NCBI GenBank assembly: GCA_021738605.1 | Contig: JAIPBY010000001.1 | Coordinates: 1-41,495, forward strand | Reading direction: 5' to 3' | DNA: 41,495 nt | Origin: Chitinophagaceae bacterium | GTDB lineage: Bacteria > Bacteroidota > Bacteroidia > Chitinophagales > Chitinophagaceae | Shown here: piece by piece, positions 19,711 to 41,281 of the stretch | How positions within the stretch are numbered: the first letter of the stretch is position 1 | Layout of the letters: each line of letters opens with the position of its first letter | Program-made: the position numbers and the translations under genes | Notes under the pieces: model-generated | Told to the model about the DNA's origin: nothing | The model's input: the letters and a program-made list of their open reading frames with translations, nothing else | Database searches by the model: none

Positions 19711-20730
19711 ATGGACATTAAAAACAATATCCTGGAAACAATTGGGAATACCCCATTGATAAGAATCAACAAAATTACCCAGGCCCTTCCTTGCCAGGTC
19801 TTGGCCAAGGTTGACTATTTCAATCCAGGAAATTCTATCAAAGACCGGATGGCTCTCAAAATGATTGAAGTGGCAGAGCGGGAAGGAAAATTAAAACCCG
19901 GTGGCACCATCATTGAATGTACATCGGGAAATACAGGAATGGGTCTTGCATTGGCGGCTATTGTAAAGGGATATAAATGCATTTTTACCACTACAGACAA
20001 ACAGTCCAAGGAAAAAGTGGACATCCTGCGTGCAGTGGGAGCGGAAGTGATCGTTTGCCCCACCAATGTTGCACCAGAAGATCCCAGGAGTTACTACGCG
20101 ATTGCACAAAGATTGGCCAAAGAGATTCCCAATGCATTTCATGCCAACCAATATGACAACCTCGCCAATCGATTGGCACATTATGAATCAACAGGGCCTG
20201 AGCTCTGGGAACAAACAGATGGGAAAATCACCCATCTTGTTTCTACAGCAGGTACTGGTGGAACCATCACAGGAACTGCCATGTTCCTGAAACAAAAAAA
20301 TCCCAACATCAAAATATGGGCCATCGATGCCTGTGGGTCTTTACTGACCCATTACTATAAAACCGGATCGATTGACATGACCAAAGTTCACCCTTATGTG
20401 TCTGAAGGTTTTGGAGAAGACTTTGTGCCTGAAAACTTTGACATGTCCTTGATTGACCATTTTGAACAGGTAACAGACAAGGATGGCGCCATCATGGCAA
20501 GAAGGATTTCAAGGGAAGAAGGAATTTTTTGTGGATACAGCGCTGGCAGCTGTTTGCAAGGATTGATGCAACTTAAAGATGAATTGAAAAAAGATGATAT
20601 GGTGGTTTGTATTTTTCATGACCACGGCAGCAGGTACCTTGGTAAAATTTACAACGACCAATGGATGATTGATCAGGGATTTATGCAAGAAGCAATCAAT
20701 ATTGCCCCTGAACTCAAAAAAGTATCGTAG
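19711..20730 (+). CDS. PLP-dependent cystathionine beta-synthase / cysteine synthase family (no CBS domains)
   Basis: IGNTPL, FNPGNSIKDR (PLP Lys), TSGNTG, GTGGTITG, DHGSRYLGKIYND. Confidence 0.9.
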   Translation: MDIKNNILETIGNTPLIRINKITQALPCQVLAKVDYFNPGNSIKDRMALKMIEVAEREGKLKPGGTIIECTSGNTGMGLALAAIVKGYKCIFTTTDKQSKEKVDILRAVGAEVIVCPTNVAPEDPRSYYAIAQRLAKEIPNAFHANQYDNLANRLAHYESTGPELWEQTDGKITHLVSTAGTGGTITGTAMFLKQKNPNIKIWAIDACGSLLTHYYKTGSIDMTKVHPYVSEGFGEDFVPENFDMSLIDHFEQVTDKDGAIMARRISREEGIFCGYSAGSCLQGLMQLKDELKKDDMVVCIFHDHGSRYLGKIYNDQWMIDQGFMQEAINIAPELKKVS

Positions 20731-20778
20731 ATCTACGATACTTTACTCACGTAGATTAACAGGATTGGGAGTAATTAC
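20719..20778. promoter_or_regulatory. Perfect 26-bp palindrome plus secondary boxes; putative transcription-factor sites
   Basis: AAAGTATCGTAGATCTACGATACTTT (20719-20744), CGTAGATTAACA (20750-20761), GTAATTAC (20771-20778). Confidence 0.55.
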
Positions 20779-20841
20779 TGAACACCAATAAAAGGGTTGT
20801 TTTGCTCTTGTGTAAAGACATGAGGCAAGGTATCTTTGTAT

Positions 20842-21063
20842 TGTTGATCGAAAGAGCAACATATCCAGAAAAACCAAACCAAATCCAATTTCCAAAGAAA
20901 AAACCTCCAATTCCTAAAACCAAACAAATCCAATTTTCCTACACAAAAACCAAACTATCCAACTGAACGAAAGCCGCATCCAACATCCGAAAAACCAAAA
21001 ACCACCCATTTAACCATCAAAAAGGCTTAAGACATAAAAACCCGGTGTTCTCACCGGGTTTTT
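20842..21063 (+). ncRNA. Candidate A/C-rich repeat non-coding RNA (~220 nt)
   Basis: TATCTTTG box at 20831-20838 with TTG at 20808-20810; 5' GAAA-tetraloop hairpin; imperfect AAAACCAAAC..ATCCAA repeats; no ATG seen; terminator at the end. Confidence 0.6.
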
Positions 21064-21064
21064 A
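21035..21064. terminator. Bidirectional intrinsic terminator (his operon / candidate ncRNA)
   Basis: TAAAAACCCGGTG-TTCT-CACCGGGTTTTTA. Confidence 0.92.
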
Positions 21065-21071
21065 TATTGTA

Positions 21072-22211
21072 TCAAAGCATTCCTTTTGTTGTGGGAAGCG
21101 CATCGTGCATCGGATCTTTTTTCACAGCCATCCGAATGGCTTTAGCAAAAGCCTTGAAGATCGCCTCAATCTTGTGGTGTTCATTATCGCCCTGGCAAAA
21201 AACATTGAGGTTGCATTTGGCGGCATCTGAAAATGACTTGAAGAAATGATAGAACATTTCTGTTGGCATATCCCCTACTTTTTCCCGGCTGAAACTTGCA
21301 TCCCAAACAATCCAGCTCCTTCCCCCAAAATCAATCAACACCTTTGCCTCTGCATCATCCATGGGCAAAGCAAAGCCATACCTTTCCATTCCCCGCTTGT
21401 CGCTCAACCCTTTGTAGATGGCTTCTCCGAGGGCAATGCCTGTATCTTCTATGGTATGATGCTCATCAATATGCAGATCACCTTTTACCGCTATGTCAAG
21501 ATCCATCTTACCATGCCTTGCAATCTGATCAAGCATGTGATCAAAAAAACCCAGGCCAGTGGCAATCGTTGATTTGCCTGTACCATCTATGTTGAGCTTG
21601 ATGTCGATGCGCGTTTCGTTTGTTTCACGTACATGATGAACCGTTCTCAGGCCATGTTTTAAAAACTTGTATACTTCCATCCAATCACCTGTGACCAATG
21701 CAACTGTATTTTTCAAACCCTCCTCCAGACTGTCAAGATCAACAATACCTGCACCATCCTCACTGGTCATGAGAATGCATTTGGATCCCAGGTTGAACGC
21801 CAACTGAATATCTGTCAACCGATCACCAATCACAAATGAACCCGGAAGATCATAAGCAGGATTGTTAATGTATTTCCCCAACATTCCAAGACCCGGCTTT
21901 CTTGAAGGTGAGTTTTCATGTGGCATGCTGGGGTCAATAAACTCCTCATCAAAATGAATGCCTTCGCCTGCAAAGGTTTTTACAATATGATCATGCACAG
22001 GCTGAAAATCTGTTTTAGGAAAGGATGCAGTTCCCAAGCCATCCTGGTTGGACACCATCGCCATTTCAAAATCAAACTCCTTTACAATTCTGGAGAGGGA
22101 TTGAAAAACCGCTGGAAAAAAAACAAGTTTCTCAAAATGATCAATCTGATATGTTGGTGGCGCTTCCTTGATCAAGGTGCCATCCCTGTCGATGAACAAT
22201 ACTTTTTTCAT
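21072..22211 (-). CDS. hisB: Bifunctional histidinol-phosphatase / imidazoleglycerol-phosphate dehydratase
   Basis: FIDRDGTL HAD motif, SNQDGLG; GFFDHML, DEHHTIED, NEHHKIEA. Confidence 0.96.
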   Translation of the reverse strand: MKKVLFIDRDGTLIKEAPPTYQIDHFEKLVFFPAVFQSLSRIVKEFDFEMAMVSNQDGLGTASFPKTDFQPVHDHIVKTFAGEGIHFDEEFIDPSMPHENSPSRKPGLGMLGKYINNPAYDLPGSFVIGDRLTDIQLAFNLGSKCILMTSEDGAGIVDLDSLEEGLKNTVALVTGDWMEVYKFLKHGLRTVHHVRETNETRIDIKLNIDGTGKSTIATGLGFFDHMLDQIARHGKMDLDIAVKGDLHIDEHHTIEDTGIALGEAIYKGLSDKRGMERYGFALPMDDAEAKVLIDFGGRSWIVWDASFSREKVGDMPTEMFYHFFKSFSDAAKCNLNVFCQGDNEHHKIEAIFKAFAKAIRMAVKKDPMHDALPTTKGML

Positions 22212-32037: not shown

Positions 32038-32075
32038 ATTACGTATTAATACGTAATGAAAATGATGGTAATTAC
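32038..32075. promoter_or_regulatory. Perfect 20-bp palindrome plus secondary box upstream of the H-NOX operon
   Basis: ATTACGTATTAATACGTAAT (32038-32057) and GTAATTAC (32068-32075). Confidence 0.55.
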
Positions 32076-40609: not shown

Positions 40610-41281
40610 TCAATTGGCCATGGGTCTGTTTTCAATGATGCCAGACTTAACGGCATACATAACCAAACCAGCCAGTGATTTTGCGCCGGTTTTTACTTTC
40701 AACTTATCCCTGATGGCCTCAACTGTTCTTGGGCTCAGTTCTACCAAATCAGCAATTTCCTTTGTACTTTTCTCTTCACAAATCATGCGAAGTATGGTAA
40801 TTTCCTTATCGCTCAACTTGGCGTCAACAGGCAATGAAGCCTCAGCCTGGCGTTTAACACGAAGACCATCAATGAGTGCTTTGTTGGTCAGTTGATTAAA
40901 GTAATATTCCTGCTCATGTACAGTTTTAATGGCTTGGTAGATGATTTCTGAGTCAGAATTCTTTGTCAAATATGAGTTGGCCCCCAACTCCATGAGTTTG
41001 GAGATCATGGAGTGATCATTGTGCATGGTGAGCATAATCACCTTGATTTCTGGATATAGTTTTTTGATTTCAGGCAATGTATTGATGCCATCCATGATGG
41101 GCATCTGGATATCCAGCAGGATAACATCAGGCTGAACATGCTTGAGGACAGTAAGCAATTGCATGCCATTGTCTGCCTCTGCAATCATTTTGATATCCTT
41201 GTGCATGGATAATGCAGACTTAACCCCTGCCCGGAAAAGGACATGATCATCGGCTATGGCTACTTTTATGGGTTCGGTCAT
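40610..41281 (-). CDS. NarL/LuxR-family response regulator
   Basis: IADDH, ILLDIQMP, GANSYLTK, LSPRTVEAIR HTH; TAATTTTG box at 41329-41336 (minus). Confidence 0.94.
   Translation of the reverse strand: MTEPIKVAIADDHVLFRAGVKSALSMHKDIKMIAEADNGMQLLTVLKHVQPDVILLDIQMPIMDGINTLPEIKKLYPEIKVIMLTMHNDHSMISKLMELGANSYLTKNSDSEIIYQAIKTVHEQEYYFNQLTNKALIDGLRVKRQAEASLPVDAKLSDKEITILRMICEEKSTKEIADLVELSPRTVEAIRDKLKVKTGAKSLAGLVMYAVKSGIIENRPMAN

Follow-up and report, generated by a model that had tools for sequence, protein, structure and literature searches.

A repeat-built non-coding gene of Chitinophagaceae, a probable many-site sponge for a FopS-like small RNA

Between a cystathionine beta-synthase-like (cbs) gene and a convergent hisB gene, a Chitinophagaceae genome (GenBank assembly GCA_021738605.1) carries a short A/C-rich unit built of imperfect repeats, which raises the question of what such a unit encodes. 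We analysed it in a window of 41,495 nucleotides, the whole stretch of DNA under study (contig JAIPBY010000001.1, positions 1 to 41,495), and in related genomes. A preliminary description made from the letters of the window had proposed a stand-alone, largely unstructured decoy RNA, with an RNA-binding protein or a G/U-rich small RNA (sRNA) as its partner. Our analysis points to the second partner: the element is probably a stand-alone non-coding gene, and its RNA would act as a multi-site sponge that titrates a FopS-like sRNA by base-pairing. At the level of sequence, the unit itself, its conservation as repeats, the gene of the partner sRNA and the complementarity between the two are established. 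The features are collected in Table 1.

Table 1. Features of the sponge locus, its predicted docking sites and associated genes (positions in the window unless a genome and contig, G and C, are given; G000 is the window genome)
Feature	Position	Strand	Basis or remark
Predicted non-coding sponge RNA, 221 nt	20843..21063	+	ends and strand deduced from promoter and terminator
-33 promoter region, TTG at 20808-10	20800..20812	+	mostly invariant in 7/7 aligned orthologues
-7 promoter box TAnnTTTG	20831..20838	+	sequence; consensus and position from PMC9723704
5' hairpin	20843..20860	+	fold; sequence variable across the family
Docking site 1	20861..20875	+	predicted duplex -16.1, net of opening -14.3 kcal/mol
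Docking site 2	20883..20905	+	predicted -18.4, net -16.0 kcal/mol
Docking site 3	20906..20921	+	predicted -16.6, net -14.8 kcal/mol
Docking site 4	20929..20951	+	predicted -19.3, net -17.4 kcal/mol
Docking site 5, weakest, overlapping 5' strand of 3' helix	20957..20975	+	predicted -12.6, net -8.1 kcal/mol
Docking site 6, inside loop of 3' helix	20978..20996	+	predicted -20.7, net -19.0 kcal/mol
Short 3' helix, 20971-75 with 21024-28, enclosing a loop of ~48 nt	20971..21028	+	fold
Bidirectional intrinsic terminator, common to sponge unit and hisB	21034..21065	.	perfect 14-bp inverted repeat; kept in 7/7 orthologues
Upstream neighbour, cbs-like gene (context only)	19711..20730	+	
Downstream convergent neighbour hisB (context only)	21072..22211	-	
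Palindromic box CGTA-N4-TACG at -117, candidate activator site	20726..20737	.	overlaps cbs stop codon
NarL/GacA-fold response regulator gene, candidate activator	40610..41281	-	
Second family unit in the same genome	G000:C2:21398-21619 (L031:499-720)	-	own promoter and terminator
FopS-like sRNA gene, copy 1 (L537)	G000:C64:12282-12342	+	
FopS-like sRNA gene, copy 2 (L538)	G000:C59:10680-10739	-	
ECF sigma factor gene, candidate target leader (L195, L230-L259)	G000:C132:6543-7124	-	

Both promoter elements named in the preliminary description, TTG at 20808-10 and TATCTTTG at 20831-38, are present, and the GCTCTTG of the -33 region was found again in distant family members. The Bacteroidota -7 box is reported to occupy -12 to -5 (PMC9723704), so the start of the RNA is predicted at G20843, a small correction to the earlier placement. 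The strong terminator that had been claimed is indeed a perfect 14-bp inverted repeat (arms 21034-47 and 21052-65) with T runs on both strands; a simple terminator scan missed it. The 5' hairpin folds as first described, but its sequence and GNRA loop vary across the family. The 3' helix is longer in orthologues than at the window locus, and the equivalent helix of another subfamily shows both-sided changes in two of six pairs. The product of the neighbouring cbs-like gene has 339 amino acids compared with ∼453 in relatives where the gene lies upstream of the same RNA; judging by this comparison, the gene shed its C-terminal part while the RNA remained linked.

The composition of the body was borne out in full. 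Positions 20861-21020 hold only 7 G, the remainder being 78 A, 50 C and 25 T, and they contain the three quoted repeats together with six copies each of TCCAA and AAAACC; the terminator arm adds a seventh AAAACC at 21037, and 20839-21064 is free of ATG. Among 394,118 segments of 160 nt in its own genome, the element has the top motif density, and only 8 segments have 7 G or fewer; motif density and G-poverty both exceed chance. In the predicted fold, 91% of the RNA body is unpaired. Of the 36 same-genus genomes searched, 11 have an orthologue at the same location (two truncated by contig ends). The orthologues differ by indels of 1–3 nt and by repeat duplications of ∼40–46 nt, and motif columns are 92.5% identical against 79.3% in the linkers, so that the alignment across relatives that had been suggested earlier reveals conservation as repeats and not as a reading frame. 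An Rfam search, likewise suggested, gave no family at gathering threshold for the long RNA: the best score in the window region was 28.1 bits against a threshold of 114 and was driven by the terminator, and 12 other member loci gave no match.

RNA libraries were consulted as assembled contigs. Four of six RNA runs contain contigs within 20842-21045, none of them bridging to the neighbour genes; runs X16 and X18 contribute no contig there, although uncovered parts count as no evidence, and two DNA runs cover the whole stretch. In X15, a contig identical to window 20867-21024 has a depth of 127.9; an identical cbs contig has 2.4 and a hisB contig 18.1. In X17, the depths of element, cbs and hisB contigs are similar. 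All mapped runs are contigs, which give neither strand nor RNA ends nor level, and for this reason they only hint at a discrete RNA from the element. Some RNA contigs of X17 and X20 jump back from the RNA interior to near its 5' end (20842-20997), which may be a library artefact or a circular form.

By its sequence features, the window RNA belongs to an uncatalogued, multicopy family of Chitinophagaceae RNAs of ∼120–720 nt. A scan of a species-level genome collection returned 54 stretches, of which 17 were dropped (13 within long reading frames, 4 motif-poor) and 37 were kept as family. The retained stretches come from genomes labelled Chitinophagaceae, Chitinophagales or unspecific Bacteroidota, plus one contig (QFQQ01000053.1) of a metagenome-assembled genome labelled Citrobacter freundii, which carries a full family member (L072) and is likely misbinned Chitinophagaceae. 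Copy numbers reach at least five units in G133 and at least eight in G160, and G241 has four in tandem. Units were verified in 16 of 60 family genomes; the family pattern recovers 64 of 75 known members, and its misses are therefore not absences. No motif clusters were present in 23 pattern matches sampled outside the family, and among 68 matches in viral contigs, six had at least 7 motifs, none resembling a family member. A sequence-only RNA model was insensitive, matching 5 of 151 genomes.

The family is not uniform. Ten loci (L052, L053, L055, L103, L147, L148, L158, L161, L204 and L206) form a subtype in which the 5' end has two alternative partners, a short internal complement and a distal strand that precedes a U run, and L103 has three such units in tandem; in terms of the modelled folds, an sRNA-responsive attenuator inside the sponge is possible. 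At L027 (G033:C70) and L221 (G223:C1), the motif array lies downstream of a frame of ∼70 codons whose leader also has AUCC motifs, possibly an mRNA-borne sponge. A distinct, dispersed C/T-rich repeat with CTTCAAC/CTCTCAAC units, often just before start codons, was seen in intergenic regions of the window genome (contigs C105, C149, C118, C47, C39, C175 and C8).

The G/U-rich sRNA named earlier as a possible partner has a concrete counterpart: a predicted sRNA of ∼60 nt, whose 5' 22 bases complement both repeat motifs in the right order. Of 60 family genomes, 39 carry this 22-mer, in up to 10 copies that are nearly all exact; a reversed-pattern control gave no matches. Among 57 sRNA loci examined, 38 have a -7 box at -14 to -10, and most loci continue with a hairpin and end in a T run at ∼60 nt. 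A shorter form of the seed, with one mismatch allowed, occurs in 4 of 237 non-family genomes, never with the sRNA layout and in one case as the antisense of a gene start. The first 11 aligned bases equal the published FopS consensus (supplement of PMC11697453); the Rfam FopS model (RF04319) scores 16.0 bits over positions 3-71 (E ∼1) and its gathering score of 56 is not reached, so we call the partner FopS-like, not a member by score. With FopS/GibS of Bacteroides thetaiotaomicron (RF04319, PMC11697453) it shares the 5' seed block, a length of ∼60–70 nt, a single-stranded 5' end followed by a terminator, a canonical promoter and multiple copies; unlike FopS, it contains two GGAU blocks, which arise from a 2-nt insertion and a substitution. 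FopS is described as a gut-Bacteroides repressor that blocks translation by pairing near start codons and is bound by the protein RbpB (PMC11697453).

The seed centre of the FopS-like sRNA is antisense to AUG followed by AAA. Its predicted targets, taken as the best 40 of 1344 start regions, include several secreted-looking proteins, and SusC genes are not dominant. In another family, the start region of a TonB-dependent receptor-like gene is a one-mismatch complement of the seed core (L573, G529:C5:52872-52893, minus strand). The loci L548, L562 (G075) and L572 comprise a variant sRNA with an altered 3' half of the seed and one leader site in the same genome that fits the variant. The sRNA is present in every one of the 16 genomes where a unit was verified and none of the 21 without the 22-mer has a unit, a co-occurrence that follows one clade of kin genomes and is not independent evidence; in 23 of 39 sRNA-bearing genomes no unit was verified, with pattern misses again not being absences.

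Six predicted duplexes with this sRNA tile 20861-20996 of the window RNA without overlap, and five keep -14 kcal/mol or lower after the opening cost. Their sum is -102.2 kcal/mol. Dinucleotide shuffling of the body, repeated 60 times, gave -37.1 ± 12.0 (best -78.2), and 60 shuffled seeds gave -44.5 ± 22.3 (best -82.9); these energies are predictions, and G/U-rich seeds pair readily with A/C-rich RNA. The antisense strand of the body gives a summed pairing of -17.3 kcal/mol. For pairing with the element, the seed ranks second of 1379 promoter-proximal 27-mers of the genome, one unrelated 27-mer being slightly better. The excess extends to the family: 37 members (promoter plus terminator units of 120–560 nt, six near-duplicates dropped) have 311 predicted sites compared with 109 in shuffles, each of the 37 exceeds its own shuffle, and the number of predicted sites per member has a median of 8 and a range of 3–17.

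The pattern of pairing within the sites is uneven. Seed positions 1-7, 12-15 and 17-22 are paired in 71–97% of member sites, whereas the central CAUA is paired in 31–49% of sponge sites, against 63–87% in the top 60 predicted mRNA start regions. Since the flanks are paired and the anti-start-codon centre mostly is not, the sites are, in the pairing model, mimics of start regions without the AUG. The second copy in the same genome has a near-perfect predicted site (-25.5) that lacks the UG of AUG. Because the seed is nearly invariant, compensatory changes linking sRNA and sponge could not be demonstrated, and no array was found in two variant-seed genomes. A pattern for arrays fitting Bacteroides-type FopS matched at least 119 metagenome stretches in the 23 of 64 parts covered, and these contained no convincing promoter-array-terminator unit.

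With at most one mismatch allowed, 26 of 51 non-redundant units have the palindromic box upstream, compared with 24 of 1288 gene leaders (1.9%), and its positions cluster at -93, -117 and -138. At the window locus it is embedded in a longer palindrome (20719-20744), which could alternatively be a hairpin. With a box matrix derived from the RNA units, and with the window genome only as background, the promoter of a response regulator gene ranks 13th of 1291 in that genome; 21 of 22 promoters of its orthologues reach at least the 97.5th percentile, compared with two of seven paralogue promoters. The regulator scores 125.3 bits, below the cut-off of 280 of the NCBIfam UvrY/SirA/GacA equivalog, and is assigned to the NarL-family fold only. 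It is present in 22 of 60 family genomes, including all 16 with a sponge unit, and in G184 its gene is divergent to a family RNA. The conserved box, and a regulator gene with the same box, suggest inducible expression of the sponge. Other palindromes were noted in this genome. A perfect 20-bp palindrome containing the CGTA-N4-TACG core occurs identically at window 32038-32057, upstream of a gene of a heme-NO-binding-like sensor cluster, and at G000:C39:4818-4837, upstream of a small gene. An inverted TACGTA pair ∼30 nt apart lies upstream of the second unit (G000:C2), and likewise at L014 and L022.

What the sRNA might control was approached through gene leaders. As judged from sequence conservation, the leader of an ECF sigma factor gene is a candidate target of the FopS-like sRNA: it conserves AUCC near -30 and AAAACC near -16. 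A regular expression for this arrangement, devised after viewing ECF leaders, matches in 16 of 23 regulator genomes, 4 of 27 others and 1.8% of the leaders of the window genome. Predicted pairing of the ECF leader with the seed falls in the top 5% in 15 of 23 genomes with regulator and sRNA, 4 of 15 with the sRNA only and 1 of 12 with neither. Many ECF leaders form a helix over the bases before the AUG (80.7% paired, slid controls 36–47%), with both-sided changes in 5 of 10 pairs; RNAalifold found no consensus structure in the ECF leader alignment, and the window genome's own ECF leader is without the helix. Similar ECF leader helices of other sequence were seen in genomes without a sponge.

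Other leaders were tried and rejected. Only 5 of 30 primary-sigma-like leaders have AUCC at a distance of 50 nt or less from the start, as do 7 of 27 YkuD-family leaders (three more had no assignable start), and sites in leaders of HU, an OmpR-type regulator and glutamate dehydrogenase were unconserved in 5 of 5 cases each. A start-region pattern gave 44 matches in five genomes, and among 30 examined only the ECF sigma factor recurs; of 26 orthologue pairs in a 400-kb stretch of G223, none has AUCC in both leaders.

Taken as a mechanism, the FopS-like sRNA would repress translation in the manner of FopS, by pairing across start codons; the sponge, induced by the NarL-family regulator through the upstream box, would bind up to five or six sRNAs per molecule at its AUG-less start-region mimics; and titration would lift sRNA control of the targets, with the ECF sigma leader as one candidate. 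Stand-alone sponges of sibling sRNAs are known: QrrX of Vibrio cholerae (PMC9732341) and CrfA of Caulobacter crescentus, which has one mapped site (PMC12559287). Like them, the element has its own gene, is a candidate for induction by a signal or regulator, and is predicted to pair with the seed of a multicopy sRNA. They differ in that QrrX and CrfA work with Hfq, which Bacteroides-type organisms reportedly lack (PMC13370968); moreover, CrfA has a single site, compared with 3–17 predicted sites in a family that is itself multicopy. The antagonist known for FopS is a protein, RbpB (PMC12205990, PMC13750123), whereas here it would be an RNA. By analogy only, the design recalls multi-site sponges of eukaryotic microRNAs and the centrally bulged target mimics of plants (ciRS-7, IPS1) in its many seed sites per molecule and unpaired duplex centre; unlike these, it is bacterial and linear, and no Argonaute is involved.

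Pairing by itself cannot separate titration from storage or decay, and an RNA that stores, protects or scaffolds the sRNA, or is a substrate destroyed by it, would rest on the same complementarity. The central bulge could keep such a duplex from cleavage, and in G133 and G160 a unit is preceded on its own strand, by at most ∼1 kb, by an sRNA copy. Against this, the sites occupy the entire seed, which the sRNA would also require for its mRNAs, the known sibling-sRNA sponges QrrX (PMC9732341) and CrfA (PMC12559287) inactivate their sRNAs, and no more than 7 of 47 sRNA promoters score high for the box, consistent with separate control. We regard storage or decay as unlikely.

The preliminary description had also invoked CsrB-like decoys, and a single-strand RNA-binding protein reading A(A/U)CC could in principle be captured by such an array. 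The element shares with CsrB/CsrC, RsmX/Y/Z and CrcZ (PMC13501541) an unpaired body of many short motifs, the presence of paralogues and a response-regulator box farther upstream, which recalls the Csr/Rsm architecture; RRM proteins are encoded in five of five genomes tested, and RbpB, as noted, binds FopS (PMC11697453). Unlike CsrB/Rsm RNAs, however, the element has no GGA loops on the promoter strand, its motifs being UCC/ACC with ten GGA on the antisense strand only; its repeats are antisense to an RNA, it has no Rfam match, and CsrA was found in none of 61 family genomes, with control genomes positive. The Hfq decoy CrcZ is characterised by AANAANAA (CA) motifs; ACAA and AACA words are depleted in the family. 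A cold-shock domain was present in three of five genomes by one search and was not found in G160 (one contig, many copies), G017 and G000, and none of 19 RRM leaders examined has a motif cluster. One invariant sRNA, on the other hand, explains both motifs, their flanks and their order. The decoy proposal thus stands as a stand-alone, unstructured, multi-site RNA outside Rfam, and its protein version is unsupported and, in our view, quite improbable.

Two further readings have very little to recommend them. C-rich, G-poor and unstructured RNA is what characterises rut sites, and the composition fits a decoy or loading site for Rho, but in the 37 members ACUC (7 vs 51 expected), CUCC (14 vs 33) and CCCC (8 vs 47) are depleted while AUCC is enriched (399 vs 52), an enrichment that is partly circular because members were gathered by motif patterns; a role in Rho binding is therefore highly improbable. 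The 48-codon frame 20820-20966, whose translation and conservation had been named as the finding that would speak against an RNA, retains its ATG in the six closest orthologues, the window included, but this ATG sits in the promoter spacer, 23 nt upstream of the predicted start, and the frame is not conserved across orthologues, ranging from 39 to 88 codons with unrelated C-termini because of indels and lacking an ATG in G031, so that a small protein gene is hardly credible.

The preferred reading, a sponge for the FopS-like sRNA, may be part of a larger circuit. We tentatively picture, at a confidence well short of that in the sponge itself, an RNA-only switch in a Chitinophagaceae clade in which an autoregulated NarL-family regulator drives many-site sponges, these titrate the FopS-like sRNA, and targets including the ECF sigma factor are released, with the number of sites tuned by repeat expansion. 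Such a cascade would resemble Gac/Rsm. A literature search (most subscription papers and preprint supplements lay outside its coverage) returned no description of the family or of an RNA sponge for FopS, and a many-site base-pairing sponge is apparently undescribed in bacteria: many-site bacterial decoys are known for proteins, and the best-mapped sponge compared, CrfA, has one site (PMC12559287). The family would thus be a many-site base-pairing sponge, itself multicopy, facing a multicopy sRNA, and it offers an answer to how many identical sibling sRNAs can be shut off simultaneously. It would extend FopS-type control beyond gut Bacteroides, with a testable regulator and target named, and the natural variation in site number (3–17) would make titration thresholds directly measurable. 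The design also suggests a way to silence families of sibling sRNAs that resist multiple deletion in B. thetaiotaomicron (PMC11697453).
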